From the NCBI GenBank assembly GCA_035762545.1, contig DASTOM010000024.1, positions 81,559 to 145,558 of the forward strand: DNA of 64,000 bases, written 5' to 3'. The translations under genes and the position numbers were made by a program. The notes beneath the pieces are model-generated. The model saw only the letters and a list, made by a program, of their open reading frames with translations, was not told where the DNA came from and searched no databases. Shown piece after piece: positions 47,245-60,016 of the stretch. This DNA comes from Acidimicrobiia bacterium (GTDB lineage: Bacteria > Actinomycetota > Acidimicrobiia > Spongiisociales > ZC4RG35). Numbering within the stretch: the stretch's first letter is position 1; each line of letters opens with the position of its first letter.

Positions 47245-48174
47245 ATGGCCACCACCAGACTGATCTCGACATCGCACGGCACCAACCGGGAGGCGTTCTC
47301 CGCCACCGACTGGGCGCTGTTCCTCTCGCTGGCTGCCATCTGGGGGTCGTCGTTCCTGTTCATGGCCATAGGGCTCGATGCATTTCATCCCGGGCTGGTG
47401 ACACTCATACGGGTCGGTCTCGGAGCGTCATTCCTGGCGCTGATACCTCGCACACGGTCTGTCTCGATCGACCGTGAAGACTGGCCCAAGATCGCCTTGC
47501 TCTCGGTGATCTGGGTGGCGTTGCCGTTCACACTGTTCCCGATCGCCCAACAGTGGATCGACTCCGCCATCGCCGGGATGCTGAACGGGGCGACCCCGAT
47601 CTTCACCGCCCTCATCGCTACCGCGCTCCTCCGGAGCCTGCCCGGCCCCCTTCAGATGACCGGCCTACTTCTCGGGTTTGCCGGCATCGTGGCAATCGCC
47701 CTGCCCTCGGCTGGTGGCGATACGACCGCGGCCATCGGGGTCATCCTGATCGTCCTCGCCACCATGGGATACGCGGTTTCGCTCAACATGGTTCCACCGT
47801 TGCAGCAAAAGTACGGGTCACTTCCGGTGACTGCCCGGGTTCTATGGCTGGCCGCCCCGATGGTGATGCCCTATGGGCTGGTGGGACTGGGACAATCCAG
47901 CTTTGCCTGGCCATCCCTGCTGGCGGTGGCGGCCGTCGGCATTCTCGGAACCGGCCTCGCCTTCATCTTCATGGGAAACCTCGCCGGAAGCGTCGGAGCG
48001 ACGAGGGCCTCGTTCCTCTCCTATCTGATCCCGGTGGTCGCCGTGGTGCTCGGTGTGGTTTTTCGGGACGAGATCGTCTCTCCGGTGGCCATCGCCGGAG
48101 TCCTGCTGGTGATCATCGGTGCGATCCTGGCCTCACGCCGTGAGACGAGAGAGATCGACCGACGCCCGGCGTAG
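47245..48174 (+). CDS. DMT superfamily transporter (EamA domain)
   Basis: Duplicated EamA 5-TM halves. Confidence 0.7.
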   Translation: MATTRLISTSHGTNREAFSATDWALFLSLAAIWGSSFLFMAIGLDAFHPGLVTLIRVGLGASFLALIPRTRSVSIDREDWPKIALLSVIWVALPFTLFPIAQQWIDSAIAGMLNGATPIFTALIATALLRSLPGPLQMTGLLLGFAGIVAIALPSAGGDTTAAIGVILIVLATMGYAVSLNMVPPLQQKYGSLPVTARVLWLAAPMVMPYGLVGLGQSSFAWPSLLAVAAVGILGTGLAFIFMGNLAGSVGATRASFLSYLIPVVAVVLGVVFRDEIVSPVAIAGVLLVIIGAILASRRETREIDRRPA

Positions 48175-49056
48175 GGCACGCATCGCCAACTCCTTGTCCC
48201 CGAGCCGGTGTCGCAGTTCCCGTTCGAGGCCACCGATCGGATAGAGGTTCTGTGGCGCCCGCGGGTCCTTGTGCCGGGCTGACGCATAGCGGGGAAGGGT
48301 GGCGCTCACCCGGGAGGCGACTCGCGCCGCGGTGGCGGCGTCGGTGTCGGCGTCGATTTCACAACGCACCAGCCCCCCGGCCGGGCCGGCGTGGTTGGCG
48401 AGCCGCAAGTACCACGAGTACCGGCTCCACGACGTGGTGGTCAGGAACAGCGGCGTCCGATAGCCGGCGGGCAGACCGGTCAGAACCTGGCGCAACTCCA
48501 TGGGGAGGTACTGGACCTTCTGGGTTTTGATGTAGCCGACGGCATTCTCGATGTCGCGGGCATGGCTCAAGGGCCCGTCCACCACCAAGAGCTCAGACTC
48601 CCCCGCCAGGCGGGTCATCTTCGCCTCGAGGTCACCCATGCGCTGCTGTATCCCCAGCCACAGCTCTTCTGGAGTGGTCCCCTTGGTCGCTTTGACCTCG
48701 TATGCGCCGACGCTGGTGGGAACGTCGACAGCAGGCGCAGAGGTGAACAACCCACGTTCCACCTCGGTGTTGGTGATGTGGGCGGTGCCGTTGCACCTGA
48801 CCACGCCAGCGGCGTAGGTGGCTGCCAGCGCAAAACCGGGGAAGTCGGGAGGCTGATCGATCCAGAGCGTCGCATCGACCCGTCGCACCCCGTCGACGAA
48901 CAGGACGTCACCGACCGGCTCGGAATCGGGGAGAAGGGGCCGCCAGTCCTCCGGTTTCAATTCGACCGAGACGTCGACGTTCTCGCTGGCATCCTCCAGG
49001 TCGGCGTCGGTCGGTGCGCCGTAGTCGGAGTCCCAGGCCTCCACGGTGAACTTCAC
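48133..49056 (-). CDS. Uncharacterised protein translationally coupled to sbcC; hypothesised NurA-like / RNase H-fold nuclease
   Basis: Start overlaps the sbcC stop by 4 nt. Two hydrophobic-strand-DG motifs (VLFVDGVRRV and LLVVDGPLSHARD) and several conserved acidic residues. No HD, HNH or P-loop motif. Confidence 0.45.
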   Translation of the reverse strand: MKFTVEAWDSDYGAPTDADLEDASENVDVSVELKPEDWRPLLPDSEPVGDVLFVDGVRRVDATLWIDQPPDFPGFALAATYAAGVVRCNGTAHITNTEVERGLFTSAPAVDVPTSVGAYEVKATKGTTPEELWLGIQQRMGDLEAKMTRLAGESELLVVDGPLSHARDIENAVGYIKTQKVQYLPMELRQVLTGLPAGYRTPLFLTTTSWSRYSWYLRLANHAGPAGGLVRCEIDADTDAATAARVASRVSATLPRYASARHKDPRAPQNLYPIGGLERELRHRLGDKELAMRALRRASVDLSRLTA

Positions 49057-51413
49057 GGAGCCAGCCTCACGGTGGCTCCGGTCGGCTCACGGGTCACCAC
49101 ATATCGCACCGGAGCGCGCGCCGCCAGTTCTTTGACGTGGGTGATGACACCGACCATCAGACCCCGTCCGGTCAGCTCTTCGAGAACCGAGGCGACGGTG
49201 TCGAGCGAATCGTCATCGAGTGTGCCGAATCCCTCGTCGAGGATGATGGCGTCGAGTCCCGACCCGCCCTTGGCTGCCAGCGTCTCCGCCAGAGATAGGG
49301 CCAGAGCCAGGGAGACCAGGAAAGTCTCCCCGCCGGAGAGTGTGGACACCGACCGTTGCTCGTCTGCGTTGCGATGGTCGACGATCGAGAAGTCCCCGGA
49401 GTAGTCGGAGGCGAGCGAATAGCCGCCGTTGGACAGCTGAGACAGCAGGTCGTTGGCCCCCTGCACCAGGTCGACCAGGGCACCGGCCATGAGCCACTGC
49501 TCGAAACCGTTGGAACGAAGGTGTCCCATCAAGGTCGTGGCCACCGCAGCGTCCTTCGTCGCCTCCTCCTTGGTTCGCGCCAGTTCGACAGAGTCAGCCA
49601 CGGCCTTCTCGTGGAGTTCGACCATGGTCCGGGCAACGTGGAGGGCGGAAGCCAGTTGGACCGCGTAGGGCTCGACCGCGGGGATCTCGTGGCTTTCGAG
49701 CAGCGCGGCCAGGCCTTTCTCGGCTCGTTCGGCGGCCATCTCGGCGTTTTCCACTGCCGTCCGGGCAATCTCCAACTGTGGCTCCATATCCTCGAGCCTC
49801 GCCGTGCGCCACCGCAGCAGGTCTTTCCACTGCACGATCACGTCGTCGCTCTCAGACAACTCCGGCTCGAGATCGGCGACTCGCAACTGGGCCTCGGTCA
49901 GCTTCCGACCGATCCGACGGGACTCCTCGGCCAGGTCCTCCAGGGCACGCCGTGCAGCCTTGACTTCTGCTGTCCGGGCTTCGAGTGCCTCCCGGGCCCT
50001 TGACATCTGTGTCTGGAACTCAGAGACCTTCTCCGACAACTGCGCCAGCTCATCAGGACTGGGGACATTCTCGAGGTCGACCATGACCGATTCCCTCTGC
50101 CGACCGACCTCCTCACGGGCCGTCTCGTGACGGGTGAGGACGCTCCTGGCATCGTCGAGTGCCCGCCTTGCCTCGTCCACGGAGACGGCGGCCGCCCGCT
50201 CGGCCTCCTCGAGTGCGTCGAGCTCGGGAAGGGCGGCTTCGCCAGGGAGGCGCTCCACGACCTGAGTGCAGACCGGACAGGCCTCGCCGGCGACGAGGGT
50301 GCCGACGAGGGCGTGGGCGGCGTGCCGCTGACGGGCCGAGTTCAGGTCGTCCCGGATCTGGAGGAGGAGGGCGGTGGATTCGCCGACCCGGGCTTCGGCA
50401 ACCGTGGCGGCCTCGGCAATCTCCGGCTGATCGAGGTCGGCGAGCCGGGCGTCGATCTCGGCGAGGCGAGCGTGGTGCCGGTCCCAGGAAGTCAGCTGGT
50501 CGGGCGAGGGAAGGACTTCCAGGGCTGATTCGATCTGTTCGATCTGTTGCCGGGCCGTTTCCAGCCTCTCCTCAGCGGTCTCGGCCCTTTCACGTGCATC
50601 GGAAGTCAGTGCATCGAGAGCCTCGAGACGGTCCGGTGCTGTGATCGATTGGAGTCGCTCCACCGAGCCGCGCAGGTGAGCTTCGTCGGTCGATGCCTGG
50701 TCGGCGATCCTGCGTAGTTCTGCCAGAGCCTTCTCGAGGTCTCCAAAACCGGCGGAGAGCTCGTCCAGTGTCTCGAGACGCTGGCGAGCCGTTGCGGCCG
50801 TCTCATCGTCGGGGACTTCCAGGGCCGCCAGCGCCCGTTCCGCTGACTCGGCCCGATCCGTCGAGACCGCGGCTCTGGTGCGGGCCAACTCCCGCACGGT
50901 GGTGTACACGTCGAGGCCGAGAAGGCTGCGCAGAAGTCCCTGACGCTCCGCCTTGGTCGCGGTGAGGAAGCGAGCAAAGTCCCCCTGGGGGAGGACCACT
51001 GTCCGGGTGAAGTCATCGAACCTGAGCTTGAGCAGATCCTCGACCGCCGTGCTGACCTGATCCGCCCCGCTGGCGACGACCTCATCGCCCAGGAGGAGAC
51101 GGGCTTCTTTGACGCTGGCCCCACCGGTCGCGGTCCGCTGCGCCAACCGGACCGCCGTGTAACGGTCTTCACCGACGTCGAACTCGAAGGCAACCCGGGC
51201 CCGGTCGGAGCCGGCAGTGATGGCAGGGGCGACTGCGTTGCCCCCTAGCCTGGGAACCCGTCCGTAGAGAGCGAAGATCATGGCGTCGATGAGACTCGAC
51301 TTGCCCGACCCGGTCGGTCCGGTCAGTGAGAAGAAGTCGACATCATCGAAATCGACCTCGACCGGTTTCCGATAGGCGGAGAAGCCCTCGACCCGGATCC
51401 GTGCCGGTCTCAT
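49053..51413 (-). CDS. sbcC: DNA double-strand-break repair ATPase SbcC (Rad50 homologue)
   Basis: Walker A GPTGSGKSS, long coiled coil with zinc-hook CPVC, ABC signature LSGGETFLVSLALALSLAE, Walker B LDEGFGTLD, H-loop GVITHV. Confidence 0.85.
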   Translation of the reverse strand: MRPARIRVEGFSAYRKPVEVDFDDVDFFSLTGPTGSGKSSLIDAMIFALYGRVPRLGGNAVAPAITAGSDRARVAFEFDVGEDRYTAVRLAQRTATGGASVKEARLLLGDEVVASGADQVSTAVEDLLKLRFDDFTRTVVLPQGDFARFLTATKAERQGLLRSLLGLDVYTTVRELARTRAAVSTDRAESAERALAALEVPDDETAATARQRLETLDELSAGFGDLEKALAELRRIADQASTDEAHLRGSVERLQSITAPDRLEALDALTSDARERAETAEERLETARQQIEQIESALEVLPSPDQLTSWDRHHARLAEIDARLADLDQPEIAEAATVAEARVGESTALLLQIRDDLNSARQRHAAHALVGTLVAGEACPVCTQVVERLPGEAALPELDALEEAERAAAVSVDEARRALDDARSVLTRHETAREEVGRQRESVMVDLENVPSPDELAQLSEKVSEFQTQMSRAREALEARTAEVKAARRALEDLAEESRRIGRKLTEAQLRVADLEPELSESDDVIVQWKDLLRWRTARLEDMEPQLEIARTAVENAEMAAERAEKGLAALLESHEIPAVEPYAVQLASALHVARTMVELHEKAVADSVELARTKEEATKDAAVATTLMGHLRSNGFEQWLMAGALVDLVQGANDLLSQLSNGGYSLASDYSGDFSIVDHRNADEQRSVSTLSGGETFLVSLALALSLAETLAAKGGSGLDAIILDEGFGTLDDDSLDTVASVLEELTGRGLMVGVITHVKELAARAPVRYVVTREPTGATVRLAP

Positions 51414-52549
51414 GAGCCGGTCCCCACCGTTTGGGCTTCGTCGAGCAATTCAGCGAAGAGGGCTTCGACCCGCGGGTCGGAGCTGTCCTTTTCGGCGAGG
51501 TACTTGGCGAAAGCCTCGGTCGGGTCGAGCCCTTGCCTCGACTCGGTGGCGGAACGTGGCTGGGTCGGGCTCTCCAATACCACTTCAACGGCATTGGGGA
51601 TCGCCTCACGCACTTCGTCGGCGAGGCCCACCCTGGCGCTCTCCCGGAGGACCACCCGGACATAGGCGTCACCGGTGTCACCGGCACGGGCCAGGACCTG
51701 CTCGAGACTTCCGGTGAGCGACATAAGCCTTCGACCCGAGGTGAGAGGAAGCTCCTGAACCGAAGCGGGCTTGCCCGGTTCGGCGGTGACCAGCAGGGCA
51801 CCCTTCTGATCGTTGACCTCGCCGAAGTCGAGTTGGAGCGGCGAGCCGGAGTACCAGACGGCCGAGGAGTGCGGCATCTTCTGTTGACGATGGAGATGGC
51901 CGAGCGCGACATATGACAGGTGGCCGGGGAAAAGGGCCGCCGGGATGGCGTATCCGAAGATGTGGGCGGTCCGCTCTCCACCCCCTGCCTCGGCGCCGTG
52001 GACGGTGAGATGCCCGGCCAACAGGTTGACGGTGTCAGGGGTCAAGTCTGCGGTGAGCATCTCGATGACCCGACGCATGCGCTCTTCGTACTTGCCGGCG
52101 TGCTGGTCGGGGTCGGAGCCCATGATGTCCTCGACCTTGACGATGGCCCGTTGGGAGACGAACGGGAGCAGGGCGACCTTGGCACCGACGTCGGGAAGGT
52201 CGACGACTCCCCCATCCTCGGGGGACCGGGCCGTCCCCACGACTTTGACGCCTGCCCTGTCCAGCAACGGCGCTACGGCGTCGAGCCGTGCCGGATGGTC
52301 GTGGTTGCCGGCGACGACGAGAACGGGTGACACCTCGGACAGGTCGAGCAGGGTGCGCCACACGATCTCCTCGGCAGCGGGAGTCGGTGAGGCGGTGTCG
52401 AATACATCACCTGCGACCAGGGTCAGGTCGACATCGTGGCTGTCGGCTAGTCCAACCAGCTCGGACAGCACCTCACGATGCTCGTCGGAGCGATCGCGCC
52501 CCCGGATTCGACGGCCGACATGCCAGTCGGAGGTGTGCAAGACCTTCAC
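51410..52549 (-). CDS. sbcD: DNA repair nuclease SbcD (Mre11 homologue)
   Basis: Calcineurin-like phosphoesterase motifs HTSDWHVG, AGDVFD, VVAGNHD, GHLH. GTG start. 4-nt overlap with sbcC. Confidence 0.85.
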   Translation of the reverse strand: MKVLHTSDWHVGRRIRGRDRSDEHREVLSELVGLADSHDVDLTLVAGDVFDTASPTPAAEEIVWRTLLDLSEVSPVLVVAGNHDHPARLDAVAPLLDRAGVKVVGTARSPEDGGVVDLPDVGAKVALLPFVSQRAIVKVEDIMGSDPDQHAGKYEERMRRVIEMLTADLTPDTVNLLAGHLTVHGAEAGGGERTAHIFGYAIPAALFPGHLSYVALGHLHRQQKMPHSSAVWYSGSPLQLDFGEVNDQKGALLVTAEPGKPASVQELPLTSGRRLMSLTGSLEQVLARAGDTGDAYVRVVLRESARVGLADEVREAIPNAVEVVLESPTQPRSATESRQGLDPTEAFAKYLAEKDSSDPRVEALFAELLDEAQTVGTGS

Positions 52550-52620
52550 GTCGAAGATCGTAGGAAGGGGGTGTGACAGATTTGAGGAACGTCAGGCGTC
52601 GGCCTGGAATGAGTTGAGGC

Positions 52621-52995
52621 TCAGTTCCCCTCGAGCGGGGTCTGTTGATGCAAGACGAGTTGCCAGTCGCCATCCTTGGCCTGGTAGACGCTGAGGATGT
52701 GAGCCCGGTATTCCTCGGCATCTTCTGTTCGTTTCCCAGTCGCTTCATAAACGAGGCCTACGACACCATCTTCGATCGGCACGAAGGTGGGATCGCTCAT
52801 CTCGTAGCTGGCCCATGGGTCCGCCTGACCCATGGCATCGACGACGTCTCGTTTGTCGAGCACCCCCATCGAGAGGACGAACCTTCCGCTGTCCGCTACA
52901 TGGGTTTCATAGAAATCCTGGTCGCCCGAGCTCTGCCAGAACGACTCTTCGATTTCGAGGACATCGGCGAACTCCACCGGTACTCCCTCGGTCAT
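52621..52995 (-). CDS. NTF2-like / SnoaL-like (DUF4440-type) protein
   Basis: C-terminal block YQAKDGDWQLVLHQQTP typical of DUF4440/SnoaL_3. Confidence 0.5.
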   Translation of the reverse strand: MTEGVPVEFADVLEIEESFWQSSGDQDFYETHVADSGRFVLSMGVLDKRDVVDAMGQADPWASYEMSDPTFVPIEDGVVGLVYEATGKRTEDAEEYRAHILSVYQAKDGDWQLVLHQQTPLEGN

Positions 52996-53069
52996 TGGCT
53001 GGGATTACCCGTGCGGGAAACTCGACAAACGGTGGTGGATGAGGTATCGATCGGGATGAGTCGGGGCGC

Positions 53070-54195
53070 TCATCCCGGGCTTCGTCGTCGACGAGCCTGT
53101 CCTTCCTCGATGTGGGTGAGCACGTGGTGGAAGCGGCAGAGCAGGACCCCATTCGCCACAGAGGTCTCACCACCGTCCGCCCAATGCTCGACGTGGTGGA
53201 TGTCGGCCCATCGTGCCGGTCTCTCACATCCGTTCCACCTGCAGGTGCGGTCCCGGGCGACGATGGCCCGCCGCTGCGCCACAGTCCACACCCTGGTCTT
53301 CCGGCCAACGTCGAGGACTTCGGAGTCGGGCCCGAACACGATCCGACACACCGACGAGTCGCAAGCGGTCAAACGAACGGCGTCGACAGCGACGATGGAA
53401 CCGGTGTCGAGGGTCTCGTGGGTGCCACCGGCGATGCCTTGCAAGCCGGCGATGTCGGTGAGCAGTTGAATCTGGGGACGTTCCCCGCCGACCTGCACCT
53501 CGTTGTCGTGGGTGAGATGACAGTTCGCCATCTCTTCCAGGGCGTCGTGTCGGCGCTGTCTCATCGACCTCGGATCGTCAGGAGCTGGCGGCGGCAGATG
53601 CGCGGAGAGGGCGGCTTCGAACGCCTCGCCCGCCAGTTGGGTCAGCCAACCATCGACACGTCGCATTCCATTCACGGCCTGGGACAAGGACAGGCCGCGA
53701 CGGACCATCTGTGACTCCAAGTCGAGGTCACCGGGTCCATCGACCGCCTGCCGCCAGTATTCGAGAGCACGGCCGGTCTCACGAACCGTCAACGGTTCCA
53801 CGATGTCGACCAGCTTCTCCTCGGCCTCCCGATAGACGTCAGGAACGGCGTCGGCCGTCTGGAACAGCTGGCTTGCCTGATCGGAGGAGATGCGGCCGTC
53901 CGACCAGGCCCGATAGGCCGCGGGGGCCGAGGCCTGTCCCTTGACTCGGGTCGCAAAACGTTTGGCCCGTCCGGCGCATCCGACCCACCTCCATCAGGTA
54001 CGTCGTGAGGGAGGGGAAACCCAGATCGGTGAGGCCACCCGTCGATTCGAGGACAGCGACCTTCTCGGCAACCAGGACCTTCATCTGGTCGATCCCCCGG
54101 CACAGTTCCCCGATCTCGACATTGAGCTCGTCGGTGGATAGCGATCGGTTGTCGACCGCCTTCAAATCATCGAGCAATGAACGAAGTTCGCTCAT
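53070..54195 (-). pseudogene. Frameshifted DUF222 / HNH endonuclease (REP13E12-like)
   Basis: N-terminal DUF222 segment in ORF 53839..54195 (MSELRSLLDDLKAV...LMEVGRM). The remainder (ATRVKGQ...AYRAWSDGRISSDQASQLF... then the HNH motif CRWNGCERPARWADIHHVEHWADGGETSVANGVLLCRFHH) is in a different frame. The single frame switch occurs near 53975-53995. Confidence 0.55.
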
Positions 54196-54307
54196 CCCAT
54201 TCCCCTCATGTCGAGAACGTACAACCCGCCCCCGACAGAAACTCGAACTATCAACCCCGCCTGAGAATCAACCTACGACCCAGGTGTGACAAGAAAAGGC
54301 GAGGGCA

Positions 54308-54375
54308 AAAACGAGCGCATACGTGCCGTTCTCGTGCGCTGCGCGTAACGCTCGTTATCCGCTCAAGAGTGTTGA
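54308..54375 (+). repeat. 68-bp element, copy 1 (catacgtgccg-N21-gctcgttatccgctcaagagtgttgatctcgggcgg)
   Basis: Direct repeat of 55089..55156 with identical internal spacing (32 nt). Lies in an unusually AT-richer intergenic stretch upstream of the membrane protein gene. Confidence 0.55.
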
Positions 54376-54455
54376 TCTCGGGCGGTAGGCGACCGACCAA
54401 ACAAGGTCAGCGCGTCTGTCAGCAACCAACTCCTTCGGATGCTTACCTGGTCTGA

Positions 54456-55070
54456 ATGCGCAGGGCGGTCGTTGTTGGGCTCGTTTGGGGAGCCTTCTGT
54501 GGGATGGCGAATGGCCTGCCAGGGGCCACGACTGTGGTCCAGATGGCGGTTCCGTGGATCTGGGTTGCGGCATTCGTCTCGTATCGAGGCGCAGACAGCA
54601 GCAGGCTGGCTGCCGTACTGGGTGCCATCGCGTTGTTTGTAGCCAATGTCGCCTACTTTGGAGTTGGGTCATTGGCTCGGAGCATTTCGGGGCTGTCTCC
54701 GGTCGGCGGCATTCGGTTCTTCGCATTGTGGGCGGCCATTGGATTGGTCATTGGGCCAATCGCCGGGGTGGTGGGCTGGTGGCTGACTTCTCAACGACGT
54801 TCATTCACCGCGGTTGTGATGCTGGCAACGGTTTCGGTTGCTGAGCCATTGGCGCTGTGGACCCACATCGACCACCTCGATGCTCACCTTGTGTACATAG
54901 CTGTCGCGGCAGCTGGCTTGGCGTTTCCGCTGGCTTGGTTTCGACGAGACCGGCGCAAGGCGCTCAGAGCTCTGGCTCTGGTTCTGATTCTGACCTATCC
55001 GATCGCAGTGGCGCTAGAAGCCACGTTGATAGCGCTTCGTCAGATCTCTTCTCCGATGAGACTCATCTGA
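54456..55070 (+). CDS. Hypothetical membrane protein (about 6 TM)
   Basis: Hydrophobic segments throughout. Flanked by a 68-bp direct repeat. Confidence 0.45.
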   Translation: MRRAVVVGLVWGAFCGMANGLPGATTVVQMAVPWIWVAAFVSYRGADSSRLAAVLGAIALFVANVAYFGVGSLARSISGLSPVGGIRFFALWAAIGLVIGPIAGVVGWWLTSQRRSFTAVVMLATVSVAEPLALWTHIDHLDAHLVYIAVAAAGLAFPLAWFRRDRRKALRALALVLILTYPIAVALEATLIALRQISSPMRLI

Positions 55071-55088
55071 TACTCGGAGCGCCCGCTC

Positions 55089-55156
55089 CATACGTGCCGA
55101 TACCGGGCACTTTGCGAAGTGCTCGTTATTCGCTCAAGAATGTTGATCTCGGGTGG
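55089..55156 (+). repeat. 68-bp element, copy 2 (catacgtgccg-N21-gctcgttattcgctcaagaatgttgatctcgggtgg)
   Basis: 34/36 identity in the 3' block and 11/11 in the 5' block. Located 18 nt after the stop of the membrane protein gene and about 290 nt upstream of the methyltransferase gene. Confidence 0.55.
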
Positions 55157-55443
55157 GTCGGAGAGATTGCCAAGCGAGCCCGGTCGCTGAGTCAAGCTTT
55201 GTCGCTCGGGCGCTGGAGTGGCGTGACAGCCTTCTTCGCCGTACTCGCCGCCTTCGTCGTCAGCTACCTCGTCTGCGTCGAGGTCGCCAAGTACTTCTTC
55301 TACAAGATCCATACCCCAATCACGGCCCAGCCTCTACAACGCGACCACGTCCACCGACTCGCCGCCCGCTGGAGCCATCCCCAGCCGCTGCAGCTCCAAG
55401 AATCCAGCCCTAACGCACGCCAACACCGGGTACGCTTCCGCCG

Positions 55444-56214
55444 GTGAGCTTCATCGTTGGGGCAGATGCGTACGACAGATTCATGGGCCGCTATTCGATG
55501 CATCTGGCACCCCAGCTTGCCGATCTGGCAGGGGTCGATGCCGGTCAGGAAGCCCTCGATGTCGGATGCGGCCCCGGCGCACTGACAGGCGAACTGGTCG
55601 GGCGTCTCGGACCATCCGCCGTAGCAGCAGTCGATCCTTCAGAATCCTTTGTAGCCGCGGCACATGAGCGGTACCCCGAAGTCGATGTGAGACGCGCTGC
55701 GGCCGAAGAGCTCCCATTCGCCGATCAGACCTTCGACGCCACCCTGGCTCAACTCGTAGTCCACTTCATGACAGACCCGGTTCGGGGCCTTGGCGAGATG
55801 GGCCGGGTGACACGCAAGGATGGTGTGGTGGCGGCGTGTGTTTGGGACCATGCCGGCGGTCAAGGGCCACTCAAGGTTTTCTGGGACGCGGCGCGCTCGC
55901 TTGATCCTGATGTCGATGATGAGTCGTGGCGTGCCGGCACTAGCGAGGGCCATCTAGCGCAGTTGTTCCAAGAGGCCGGGTTGCGCCAAGTCGAGCAGTC
56001 GGTTCTCGAAGTTGGCGTCGACCATTCGAGCTTTGAGGAGTGGTGGGAGCCGTTCACTCTCGGCGTGGGCCCTGCAGGCGCCTACACCGCCGGCCTCGAA
56101 CCGCGACGAGCATCGGAGTTGCGTGAACGTGCCCTCGAAATGTTGCCGACGGCCCCGTTCACGGTGACAGCACGGGCCTGGGCAGCGCGCGGGGTGGTGC
56201 AGCCTGTCAGCTGA
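55444..56214 (+). CDS. Class I SAM-dependent methyltransferase
   Basis: SAM-binding motif LDVGCGPGALT and acidic post-I motif. Confidence 0.8.
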   Translation: MSFIVGADAYDRFMGRYSMHLAPQLADLAGVDAGQEALDVGCGPGALTGELVGRLGPSAVAAVDPSESFVAAAHERYPEVDVRRAAAEELPFADQTFDATLAQLVVHFMTDPVRGLGEMGRVTRKDGVVAACVWDHAGGQGPLKVFWDAARSLDPDVDDESWRAGTSEGHLAQLFQEAGLRQVEQSVLEVGVDHSSFEEWWEPFTLGVGPAGAYTAGLEPRRASELRERALEMLPTAPFTVTARAWAARGVVQPVS

Positions 56215-56691
56215 TCGGAAGAGCTCAGCCGGCCGCTTGTAGCGGGCCGAGCACCCGGATCGTCTCGATCTCGTCGACGACCTCCACGCGCCACTCGTTG
56301 CCCAGGAACACCCAGCTGGAGAAGTGATCGACCTCGGCCAACTCTTCGGCAGTCTTGCCGTATACCCCACTCATCTCCATGAATGTGTCAAAGCAGTCCT
56401 GGGTGCCCGGATAGAGGAGGTAACACAGATGCAGGGACACGTTGGACCGTGACTCGTGCCGGGTCCCGACCCTGGCACACGTACACGACGCGATCCTCCA
56501 GAACGCGATCTCCTAGCTTGGCTTTGGTGAGCTGCAGTATCACGGTGTGGATGACCGGCAACAGAGTCGACCCAGACCAGATCCAGCTGGTCCGAATCGC
56601 CACCATCACTACCCCAGAAGGGGCGCATAACGCGCGGCCCTTATCACGAAATCGACGAAATCACCCGCGCGCTATCCGGCAATCTGCGCTA

Positions 56692-57184
56692 TCACTCAGC
56701 ACCCTGACGCCGCCGAATCAACTCCTCAACTGGCGTCGGCAGGGTCTCCTCGAAATCGATCAGCTTGGCCCACGTCGGCTTGACCACCATCCGCACCATC
56801 GAGTCATAGAGGGATCGCACACCAGCCTCCCACTCCACCCGCTGCCCGGGCGTCATCTCATAGGTCCCGCTCATTTGGAAGTACTCGTCAGGGATCCCAT
56901 CGGACTTCATCGAGTTCTGCATCACCACGGAGCAGGAGGATCTTCGGCGGATGGCTCTCCGTGTCGATCGTCAACGCCACCGCTGCGTTGCGTCGCAGCG
57001 AGGCAAGCTTCGGAGCGTTGGTCGGGGTGCACATGACGATTCCCGTGCCGTTCCAGAAGATCCCGATCGGCACGACTCTGGGGGTGCGATCCGACGCCAC
57101 ATAGGCCAGACGAGCGATGTCCCGGTTCAGCATCTCCTGACTGAGCGGTTTCGCCAGCATCTCGGCTACCTCGTCACGTCCCAC
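56692..57184 (-). pseudogene. Frameshifted PPOX-class (probable F420/FMN-dependent split-barrel) oxidoreductase
   Basis: The N-terminal half (ORF 56888..57184, RLAYVASDRTPRVVPIGIFWNG...AVALTID) and the C-terminal half (ORF 56692..56928) are in different frames and overlap by about 40 nt. Together they give the usual length of about 160 aa. Confidence 0.45.
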
Positions 57185-57211
57185 GGTGTCCTCCCACCCG
57201 GCTTGGTGGCG

Positions 57212-58879
57212 CTACAAATCCTCGAAGGGGTCCTCCGGGCCGTCGTAGTCGGTGGGACGAACCGCCTCGGAGGCACGGGTTGCCCAGGCGGGGAAGGGGA
57301 ACTCGAGCACCAGAGGAACCGGTAGCTCGGGCTGGCTGAGGATCATCGTCCCCGGTTTCACGATCGTCGCTCGCTGACGGTGGGGACCGGGGAGGAATCC
57401 GTACTCCTCACGTGACGCCTCGGCGGAATCGAGACGTCCCACCACCCGGATCGAGCTGTTGGCGATGATGCGACGCTCCACCTCGGATGCAGTCTGCTGG
57501 GCTCCGATCAGGATGACACCCAATGACCTGCCCCGTTCGGCGATGTCCAACAGGATCTCTTTGATCGGGCTCGAGCCTTCCCGGGGGGCGTACTTGTTGA
57601 GTTCGTCGAGGACCACCATCATCAATTCGTCCGCCTGACCGGCACGCTCCTTGTCCTCGAATGCCCGCTTCAGGGTCACACCCACCACGAATCGCTTGGC
57701 CCGATCGTTGAGGTTGTGCAGGTCGACCACCGTCACTTGGTGGTGCAACCCGATTCGGTGTCGTTCCGGGTCGGCGACATCGGCCCGGATCAGCCGACCC
57801 AGGTGGCGTACAGACGCTTGCAGACGACGGACGAATGCGTTGACGGTCCCGATCCCGATCGCCGGCCCGGCCCACTGGTACCGGTGCTCTTCGCTCTGCA
57901 CCCGCTCGGTGATGAGGTCGGCCAACTCACGGAACGTCCGCACCCTGACGCCGTCGATCACGGCCGCACCGGTCTCAGTCAGATCGGCCTGGCGCAGTTG
58001 CGCCATCACGTTGTAGACGACGGTGGTGTATTGGGCCCGGTCGTCCTCGGCGTCGGCGAACAGGAACGGAAGGAGATCGTCGACGCAGAACTCGTGGATG
58101 CTCCAGAAGAACGACGTCACGTCCGACCGGGAGGCGACATCGGCCGTTGCCCTGGGATCGTCGATGCGAGGCGGGGCGAACAACCCGACCGAGTCGAAAG
58201 GGTTGCTGGGAAGCCCAAGGTCGGCGTAACGGGAACGCTGCTCCTCGTCGAGGCGGTTGTTGACCCGGTCGAGATGCAGAAGGTCTTCGCCCTTGACGTT
58301 GAACACCAACGCTTTGGTGTTGACAGCGGCGGGGCCCAACACTCCCGAGGTGAAAAGAGAGTGGAGCAGGAAGGTTGCGTAGCTGGTCTTGGTTGCCACA
58401 CCGGAGATGCCGGAGATGTTGATGTGCGCCCCTCGCTCACCGTTGATGAACTCGAGGTTGACCCACAGCGGCTCACCGTTGCGTGCCAGACCCACCGGCA
58501 GCTTGCGTTCCATGCGGTCGAAGAACAGCGCCCGGTCGCGTTCTTCGCCCTGGGCCACCCGCACCTCCTGTCCTGGTCTTGGCGGGACGAAGACCTCGGG
58601 CTCGAAACGGGTGGCGGTGACCTGGGCGGCCTCGGTGACCTCGGCGGGGAGGATGCCTTCCTCGATGAGGAACACATCAGAGTCGAAACGAGCTCCCTCG
58701 TGCCGGGCAACTACCTGTCCCACGGTGCCGTACATGCGCACCACCTCGCCGGTGGGCAGCACCCGCTCCAGTGCGACGACGTCGTCGAGCTGCAGGTACT
58801 CGCCTTCGCCGACACCCACCCAGAACTCGAGTGGCGTGGCGTCCCTGGTTCCCAGGACTCTCCCGACCGAATCAGCCAT
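57212..58879 (-). CDS. HerA-like ATPase (FtsK/HerA superfamily, DUF87-type)
   Basis: N-terminal HAS-barrel-like segment MADSVGRVLGTRDATPLEFWVGVGEGEYLQLDDVVALE. Deviant P-loop INISGISGVATKTS. Walker B MMVVLDELNKY. FtsK/HerA-type C-terminal block LGVILIGAQQTASEV...SIRVVGRL. The ORF-track extension 58880..59359 is rejected. Confidence 0.65.
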   Translation of the reverse strand: MADSVGRVLGTRDATPLEFWVGVGEGEYLQLDDVVALERVLPTGEVVRMYGTVGQVVARHEGARFDSDVFLIEEGILPAEVTEAAQVTATRFEPEVFVPPRPGQEVRVAQGEERDRALFFDRMERKLPVGLARNGEPLWVNLEFINGERGAHINISGISGVATKTSYATFLLHSLFTSGVLGPAAVNTKALVFNVKGEDLLHLDRVNNRLDEEQRSRYADLGLPSNPFDSVGLFAPPRIDDPRATADVASRSDVTSFFWSIHEFCVDDLLPFLFADAEDDRAQYTTVVYNVMAQLRQADLTETGAAVIDGVRVRTFRELADLITERVQSEEHRYQWAGPAIGIGTVNAFVRRLQASVRHLGRLIRADVADPERHRIGLHHQVTVVDLHNLNDRAKRFVVGVTLKRAFEDKERAGQADELMMVVLDELNKYAPREGSSPIKEILLDIAERGRSLGVILIGAQQTASEVERRIIANSSIRVVGRLDSAEASREEYGFLPGPHRQRATIVKPGTMILSQPELPVPLVLEFPFPAWATRASEAVRPTDYDGPEDPFEDL

Positions 58880-58915
58880 CTCCCGCGAGCGTAGATACCG
58901 GGGGCGACAGATCCG

Positions 58916-60016
58916 GTGAGCCTCGTCGTGTTCCCTTTCAAGGAGGAGGACGTCTCCGTGGTGGCCGCCAATTTGAAGACCGCCGCCGCACACGACCGGG
59001 TCGACGAGGTGTGGGCCGTTGCCGCGGCTGAGGGGGCGGCGATGGCTGACGTCGACGAAGCCGCGACTGAGGTGGCGACGGCGATTGGCACTCCGGTGTC
59101 GGTGTTCCCTCAGGAGCGGATCGGGATCTACCGATCCGGCAAGGGCGACGGGATGAACACTGCGATTGCCTTGGCAGCAGAGCGAGGCTTCGACCGGACT
59201 CACTTCTACGACGCAGACATCACCAACTTCGACACGACGTGGATCGACGGAGCGGAACATGCAGCAGACAGGGGCTATGGCGTGGTCCGTCACCGCTTTC
59301 CCCGGGCGGCGACCGACGCCATGATCACCTGGATGGTGACCCGACCCGGACTGGCACACCGATTCCCCGGAACCCTGCTCCCCCGGCTCGGACAGCCGCT
59401 CGGAGGCGAGATCCTCCTCAATCGGGACGCCGTCGAGGCGCTAGCGGGCAAGAAGAGCGTGCGCCAGCGTTCGGATTGGGGCATCGACACAGTGATCACC
59501 CACGCCACGGCGCTACTCGACCTCGGTATCTACGAGCACAACGCGCCCGACGGGAAGCGCCACGCTCTCTATGGCTCGCTCACCGATATACGGGACATGG
59601 TCCTCGAGTGCCTCGACGCCGTGGCCCGACTCGAAGGAGCACCGGACCCGGCGGTCGGCTTCGATTCCGACCCGCCCTCCGAGGTTCCGGCCGACCTCAA
59701 GGAGACAGTGGCGTACGACGTATCGGCGACGCGACGATCGATCGACCAGCCGATCTCGGAGGAAGAACGCGCCATCTTCCACTCCCTGGGACTCGATCCC
59801 AGCGGCCCGATCGTGGTCGATGACCGTTTGTGGAAGCGGCTCCTCCCCCAGCTCCTGGTCAGGTTCGACCTCACCGACCACGCTTGGCGTGGTGTCGTCT
59901 TTCGGCTCTGGGTCGAACGGGTGATCCATTACACGACACATCAGGTTCCACTGGGATACGACGCTGCGATGGTGTACCTCGAAGAGACGGTGCAGGCGTT
60001 CGAGCACCCGGGATGA
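58916..60016 (+). CDS. Glycosyltransferase resembling glucosyl-3-phosphoglycerate synthase (GT81 family)
   Basis: Alignable by eye to the mycobacterial GpgS layout: N-terminal VVFPFKEEDVSVV, GKGDGMNTAIALAAERG, then FYDADITNFDT, and a C-terminal region with R.PLL..L....GGE.LL.R. Confidence 0.45.
   Translation: MSLVVFPFKEEDVSVVAANLKTAAAHDRVDEVWAVAAAEGAAMADVDEAATEVATAIGTPVSVFPQERIGIYRSGKGDGMNTAIALAAERGFDRTHFYDADITNFDTTWIDGAEHAADRGYGVVRHRFPRAATDAMITWMVTRPGLAHRFPGTLLPRLGQPLGGEILLNRDAVEALAGKKSVRQRSDWGIDTVITHATALLDLGIYEHNAPDGKRHALYGSLTDIRDMVLECLDAVARLEGAPDPAVGFDSDPPSEVPADLKETVAYDVSATRRSIDQPISEEERAIFHSLGLDPSGPIVVDDRLWKRLLPQLLVRFDLTDHAWRGVVFRLWVERVIHYTTHQVPLGYDAAMVYLEETVQAFEHPG

Follow-up and report, generated by a model that had tools for sequence, protein, structure and literature searches.

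We analysed a 64,000-nucleotide (nt) stretch of an Acidimicrobiia genome (contig DASTOM010000024.1 of assembly GCA_035762545.1; hereafter the window) in which an open reading frame (ORF) for a 307-residue protein directly follows sbcD and sbcC, the genes of the SbcCD nuclease. An earlier note on this DNA had called the protein uncharacterised. We found that it is very probably a bacterial-type NurA, an RNase H-fold protein predicted to be a metal-dependent DNA nuclease, encoded by the last gene of a herA–sbcD–sbcC–nurA set (Table 1). The ORF itself is real, since thousands of homologues rule out a chance reading frame, and it lies on the minus strand, which the note had omitted.

Organization of the sbcD–sbcC–nurA genes

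The start of nurA was read directly from the sequence. Its GTG codon (49056-49054) and the TGA stop codon of sbcC (49055-49053) share a 4-nt overlap, GTGA (49056-49053), which is the form taken here by the ATGA-type overlap reported before. A GAGG Shine-Dalgarno sequence (49068-49065) precedes the GTG with an 8-nt spacer. One gene further upstream, the sbcD stop and the sbcC ATG overlap as ATGA (51413-51410). The overlap of sbcC stop and nurA start by 4 nt was also present in 57 of 76 related loci. It shows that the two genes are co-transcribed and that their translation is coupled; it shows neither stoichiometric expression nor physical contact. Of the stoichiometric co-expression with SbcCD that had been proposed, co-expression was thus supported by the overlap and by the conserved gene order described below, whereas stoichiometry was not, because an overlap cannot show it. 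At its other end, nurA overlaps the 3′ end of a convergent EamA-family transporter gene (47245-48174, plus strand) by 42 nt (48133-48174), and the same was seen in locus L001. A promoter and terminator scan of the region from 47.8 to 59.4 kb, which is uninformative in this high-GC genome, returned no promoter-like site, and 10 terminator-like sites, no more than the expected 5.9±2.4.

Both upstream products were assigned to the bacterial SbcCD families. SbcD scored 175 bits with TIGR00619 (cutoff 77.65), and archaeal Mre11 models gave at most 49 bits. SbcC was fitted better by the SbcC model than by Rad50 models, with a TIGR00618 score of 239 bits that lay under the full-length cutoff of 478.5. 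The protein is short, and carries a CPVC zinc hook within ...GEACPVCTQ....

Table 1. Positions of the genes and other features in the window
Feature	Coordinates	Strand	Remarks
nurA	48133..49056	minus	307 aa; probable bacterial-type NurA nuclease; GTG start
nurA D55 codon	48892-48894	minus	predicted catalytic residue
nurA E144 codon	48625-48627	minus	predicted catalytic residue
nurA D160 codon	48577-48579	minus	predicted catalytic residue
sbcC/nurA junction	49053..49068	minus	read directly from sequence
sbcC	49053..51413	minus	786 aa; Rad50/SbcC-family ATPase; AAA_23, SMC_N and SbcC_Walker_B matches
sbcD	51410..52549	minus	379 aa; Mre11-family nuclease; TIGR00619, Metallophos and SbcD_C matches
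insertion	52597..57211		4.6 kb; splits herA from sbcD; blastn against L009, L008, L011 and L015
DUF4440 ORF	52621-52995	minus	in insertion
DUF222+HNH gene	53073-54165	minus	in insertion; frameshifted
DUF6518 gene	54456-55070	plus	in insertion
S-adenosylmethionine (SAM) methyltransferase	55444-56214	plus	in insertion
217-aa ORF	56383-57036	plus	in insertion; no family
herA	57212..58879	minus	555 aa; bacterial-type HerA hexameric translocase; phmmer to 7f6d_B

Assignment of the 307-residue protein to NurA

The protein matched the Pfam NurA family (PF09376) at a marginal 23.4 bits against a cutoff of 21 (E = 4.8e-5), and precomputed PF09376 matches were found for many of its close homologues. When it was searched with phmmer against the PDB sequences, it matched Deinococcus radiodurans NurA (drNurA; 7f6d_H, E = 1.6e-17, query residues 39-297) and Thermotoga TM1739 (1zup, E = 4.8e-7). 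A word-indexed search gave 5554 homologues at E≤1e-3, the closest of them from Acidimicrobiia metagenome-assembled genomes (MAGs), and an exhaustive search matched 1261 representatives of 50%-identity clusters. Some close relatives already bear the NCBI name 'DNA double-strand break repair nuclease NurA'. The protein can therefore no longer be called uncharacterised, being a Pfam NurA member with solved homologues (7F6D and 1ZUP) and with relatives so named. The earlier note had named a confident match to a housekeeping family unrelated to DNA metabolism as a result that would refute it; the match found is to a DNA-repair family. It had also excluded a YhaM-type partner and any HD, HNH or PD-(D/E)xK signature, and our profile searches likewise backed none of these nuclease types for the protein.

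We then located the catalytic residues. The two DG motifs pointed out in the earlier note are present, namely LFVDGVRRV (residues 52-60) and LLVVDGPLSHARD (residues 156-168), but the numbering of their aspartates needs correction: D62 and D153 should read D55 and D160, which lie 105 residues apart instead of about 90. The window NurA was aligned with 58 representatives (alignment A1; 59 sequences, 31-59% identity), and 15 positions were invariant: D55, G56, R59, E144, D160, G161, G174, K177, R231, R266, P268, N270, L271, P273 and E278. An AlphaFold2 model built on A1 (predicted local distance difference test, 94.5; predicted template-modelling score, 0.91) placed D55 in the first long strand (51-66), E144 in a long helix (129-151) and D160 at the end of a strand (156-161), which in the model is an RNase H-type arrangement. 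The metal-binding trio of the family, with an Asp in β1, a Glu in α1 and an Asp at the end of β4, is therefore complete in the window NurA. Foldseek comparison of the model gave template-modelling (TM) scores of 0.72 with drNurA (7f6d_G) and 0.73-0.76 with TM1739, followed by TdpB as a distant third, and the protein was nearer to bacterial than to archaeal NurA structures. Pfam, phmmer, the invariance in A1 and Foldseek thus agree with the suggestion that the DG motifs carry the metal-binding aspartates of a NurA-like, RNase H-fold nuclease.

In drNurA, each of the substitutions D53A, K201A and R309A abolishes nuclease activity, W8 stacks on a substrate base, the first seven residues form a dimerising strand, and residues 10-15 form a pin that splits the DNA (PMC9960219). 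The numbering of chain 7f6d_H carries a 20-residue tag offset; once this was allowed for in the alignment, D53, K201 and R309 aligned with D55, K177 and R266 of the window protein. K177 and R266, the counterparts of phosphate-contacting residues required for catalysis, are present and invariant. Furthermore, W8 of the window NurA matches W8 of drNurA and shows at least 90% conservation in A1; the model also predicts an N-terminal strand at residues 3-6. Family membership, fold and conservation of the catalytic residues can be regarded as established.

A bacterial-type HerA encoded upstream

NurA partners the hexameric ATPase HerA, and the known complexes have the composition HerA6:NurA2. Known NurA enzymes require HerA for processive resection (PMC9960219, PMC3326311). 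Searches with Pfam and NCBIfam gave no significant match for a HerA in the window, PADLOC gave only weak HerA-model matches in its C-terminal region (6e-8 and weaker), and a Walker-A regular expression run over 82 related loci returned no HerA candidate. An absence of HerA near nurA was first inferred from the Pfam and P-loop scans, and was overturned by tblastn with HerA proteins from the Deinococcus and Chloroflexi side. Motif and profile scans miss the bacterial protein because neither Pfam nor NCBIfam has a model for it and because its Walker A is one residue longer than GxxxxGK[ST].

To reach these queries, the drNurA sequence was rebuilt from a printed alignment and led to Deinococcus and more distant homologues, whose neighbouring genes were then used in tblastn. 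In D. cavernae (L083), nurA is followed by a 617-aa gene and overlaps herA. A Chloroflexi MAG (L084, 8001-15030) and GCA_964479165.1 (L085, 8001-15021) have the order nurA-herA-sbcD-sbcC, in which the herA product has 586 or 590 aa, SbcC has 1022 and 1043 aa, and nurA and herA share an ATGA overlap. The gene after nurA has no Pfam match on record in any of L083, L084 and L085, and the 590- or 586-aa product of L085 matched D. radiodurans HerA (drHerA, 7f6d_B) at E = 5e-144. With these HerA proteins as queries, tblastn found the window gene at 58870..57245 (minus strand); the match scored 543 bits, and identity to the HerA of L084 was 55%. The window HerA in turn matched drHerA by phmmer at E = 1.4e-145 over residues 2-538, a match that takes in both its Walker A (GISGVATKTS) and its Walker B (VVLDELN, within VVLDELNKYAPREG). 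The gene lies inside a mechanical ORF of 715 aa (57212..59359) that is 160 codons too long, and Met161 (58879) was taken as the start. HerA is thus present in the window.

We also compared the contact surfaces described for the Deinococcus complex. Five of the seven HerA-binding basic residues in motifs 3 and 4 of drNurA align with window NurA R256, H262, K263, R293 and R296; H262 and K263 are consensus residues in A1, and R293 is at least 90% conserved. Of the acidic drHerA contacts D78, E80 and D81, D78 aligns with an Asp in the window HerA, and E80 and D81 align with F and L; two Glu residues (EE) lie 2-3 positions past these contacts. From the sequences, conservation of a NurA–HerA interface is plausible.

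Gene order in relatives

To examine the neighbourhood of nurA, we scanned genomes, one per species, and found at least 595 with a relative. Loci were drawn from the best 80 of these, which were nearly all MAGs of Acidimicrobiia or other Actinomycetota. Wherever a locus reached far enough, the genes for SbcD and SbcC stood directly upstream of nurA in the same orientation, and this held down to 43% NurA identity. Of the 66 informative genome loci, 53 had a herA that ended at most 163 nt before sbcD, and in 17 of those 53 the two overlapped by 4 nt; in 11 of the 66 herA lay 0.8-3.8 kb from sbcD. In two loci, L040 and L074, sbcD-sbcC-nurA stands without herA, neither the roughly 6.5 kb upstream nor the rest of the 20-kb locus containing one; their herA may lie elsewhere in those genomes or may have been lost.

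Genome loci retrieved through NurA are biased towards NurA, and the survey was repeated in metagenome contigs with an SbcD query. NurA followed SbcC in 33 of the 36 loci with enough downstream sequence, and HerA was found upstream in 36 of the 41 with enough upstream sequence (adjacent in 34). The concern in the earlier note that the gene might be missing from most sbcDC loci of relatives is thus answered by the SbcD-retrieved set. Because the order is conserved in loci retrieved by either route, herA–sbcD–sbcC–nurA is the ancestral unit of this lineage. A novel third subunit of SbcCD is accordingly not the best reading of the protein: the canonical partner of NurA is HerA, which is encoded in the window and, in most relatives, directly upstream of sbcD. 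The flanking housekeeping genes EamA, gpsA, ychF and gcvP were also syntenic across relatives, which fits a core chromosomal repair locus. Some loci with the typical cluster (L017-L020, L028 and L070) carry the labels of Gammaproteobacteria, Acidobacteriota or Chloroflexia MAGs; in gene content and similarity they agree with the Acidimicrobiia loci, suggesting that these contigs are mis-binned or mislabelled.

An insertion between herA and sbcD

All four genes lie on the minus strand in the window, and herA is 4.7 kb from sbcD. When the window was compared with relatives by blastn, homology halted at 57212 and resumed near 52590, and the herA–sbcD spacer was 45 nt in L009 and 45-160 nt in other relatives. 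The intervening segment is an insertion, in which GC content falls to 0.607 at 54-56 kb. One of its genes, encoding DUF222 and HNH domains, is frameshifted near 53976: its 365-aa homologue in L001 is intact, and tblastn aligns the two in frame -2 and then in frame -3. The window copy is either a pseudogene or an assembly error. The DUF222 gene portion of the insertion is common to the window and L001. The inserted genes are not part of the repair system. Because the insertion separates herA from the other three genes, the earlier reading saw only sbcD-sbcC and one extra gene.

Proposed mechanism and alternative explanations

The D. radiodurans and archaeal systems suggest, by homology, how the proteins might work. 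The HAS-barrel face of the HerA hexamer would seat a NurA dimer, and HerA would drive duplex DNA into the dimer. The N-terminal pin of NurA would part the strands, and the D55/E144/D160 site, aided by K177 and R266, would degrade the 5′ strand, so that a 3′ tail remains for RecA. Before the HerA–NurA step, SbcCD (the bacterial Mre11–Rad50) might recognise and open blocked or hairpin ends. We infer the nuclease polarity, the binding to HerA, the cooperation with SbcCD and the role in recombinational repair by analogy with those systems.

Several observations weigh against the assignment of the protein as the NurA of a herA–sbcD–sbcC–nurA set. The Pfam score barely exceeds its cutoff, and the nuclease role in this Acidimicrobiia clade is drawn from homology. 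In the presumed interface, D78 is the only one of the three acidic NurA-binding residues of HerA to find an acidic counterpart. In addition, L040 and L074 have sbcD-sbcC-nurA without a nearby herA, nurA is coupled to sbcC and not to herA, which it overlaps in the other bacterial order (L083-L085), and the insertion probably means that herA is no longer transcribed together with sbcDC-nurA in this genome.

Some of these points would also be expected if NurA were a true third subunit of SbcCD, binding SbcC or SbcD directly and driven by the Rad50-type ATPase, so that HerA could be dispensed with. The overlap of the nurA start with the sbcC stop in the majority of related loci, the position of the window herA beyond the insertion, the two loci without herA, and the distinctively short SbcC (about 786 aa, where the SbcC of the nurA-herA-sbcD-sbcC order has 1022-1043 aa) are all in keeping with such an arrangement. 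We nevertheless consider it unlikely, since HerA is encoded in the window and adjoins sbcD in most relatives, the pin/W8 region and the HerA-contacting basic residues of D. radiodurans NurA are conserved, known NurA enzymes depend on HerA for processive resection (PMC9960219, PMC3326311), and a gene overlap reflects coupled translation and not physical contact. Still less probable is that the cluster serves anti-phage or anti-plasmid defence rather than repair, with HerA and a NurA-like nuclease acting as in TdpAB or other HerA-based systems. Degradation of foreign DNA has been speculated for archaeal HerA-NurA (PMC3326311), NurA has a distant structural similarity to TdpB, a mobile-looking insertion with an HNH gene lies inside the cluster, and PADLOC gave weak matches for HerA (6e-8 at best with the HerA models) and for SbcC (about 1e-29 with mad3 and LmuB). 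PADLOC made no convincing defence-system assignment for the cluster, however, and found no significant match for NurA (best 0.024). No defence protein comes nearly as close to window NurA and HerA as the Deinococcus repair proteins do (E of 1e-17 and 1e-145), SbcD and SbcC are of the bacterial SbcCD type, and the housekeeping synteny together with NurA identities of 51-89% among relatives points to vertical inheritance and not to a defence island.

Beyond the assignment to NurA with HerA as its partner, a more far-reaching idea, which we put forward only tentatively and think rather doubtful, is that Acidimicrobiia and related Actinomycetota assemble HerA, SbcD, SbcC and NurA into a single machine for end resection. 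The shortened SbcC might recruit NurA or hand DNA over to it, and HerA might contact SbcD. The herA→sbcD and sbcC→nurA overlaps would then mirror physical contacts, as would the binding of HerA reported for archaeal Mre11 (PMC2288612). If true, there would for the first time be evidence in bacteria that SbcCD and HerA–NurA are directly linked in function, and the machine would possibly be the main resection route of this lineage.

Relation to known systems

The NurA family, the NurA–HerA partnership and the association of the four genes, in an archaeal operon and in Oceanithermus (PMC5448004), are already known. In the literature searched we found no description of an actinobacterial herA-sbcDC-nurA cluster with a short SbcC, and older comparative genomics may mention it. 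Among that literature, bacterial linkage of the four genes is shown for Oceanithermus only (PMC5448004). The conserved order in Actinomycetota provides genomic evidence for SbcCD working with HerA–NurA in bacteria, and bears on a question called open in a Deinococcus paper (PMC4663267). A false lead is also removed, since what looked like an orphan subunit of SbcCD is a NurA whose partner gene had been overlooked. The case further points to an annotation gap: with bacterial-type HerA invisible to Pfam and NCBIfam, a cluster of this kind can easily be mistaken for SbcCD next to a gene of no known function.

Among the closest known systems is the D. radiodurans NurA–HerA complex (PDB 7F6D; PMC9960219). 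The window NurA agrees with it in the N-terminal strand, in W8 and in the catalytic D, K and R residues, and the window HerA in overall sequence and both Walker regions. The two systems differ in NurA length (about 350 aa in drNurA, 307 aa here), in the acidic NurA-contact residues of HerA, a third of which align, and in arrangement: Deinococcus (L083) has a nurA that overlaps herA, both unlinked to sbcCD, whereas the window nurA follows sbcC and herA precedes sbcD in the relatives. The clusters of Oceanithermus profundus (nurA-hepA-sbcD-sbcC; PMC5448004), L084 and L085 likewise link four bacterial-type genes on one strand. These begin with nurA, which overlaps herA, and encode a full-length SbcC; the window NurA is only 35-39% identical to the NurA of such nurA-first clusters. 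Thermotoga maritima TM1739 (PDB 1ZUP) differs in being a structural-genomics entry deposited as a hypothetical protein.

The gene order of the Actinomycetota relatives is that of the archaeal herA–mre11–rad50–nurA operon of Sulfolobus and Pyrococcus (PMC3326311, PMC3300031, PMC2288612). All four window proteins are nevertheless bacterial-type and did not qualify as archaeal-type Mre11, Rad50 or NurA orthologues, and the window NurA has the bacterial mode of dimerisation through an N-terminal β-strand and is without the archaeal insertions (PMC9960219). The archaeal operon belongs to hyperthermophilic archaea, whereas the present hosts are uncultured Actinomycetota known from metagenome bins alone, and in the window the four genes, on one strand, are split by the 4.6-kb insertion. 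The TdpAB complex of a HerA-like and a NurA-like protein (PDB 8WFD/8WET) is more remote, with 11% identity, a TM score of 0.37 and no linkage to SbcCD; the present cluster, in contrast, is set in conserved housekeeping synteny.

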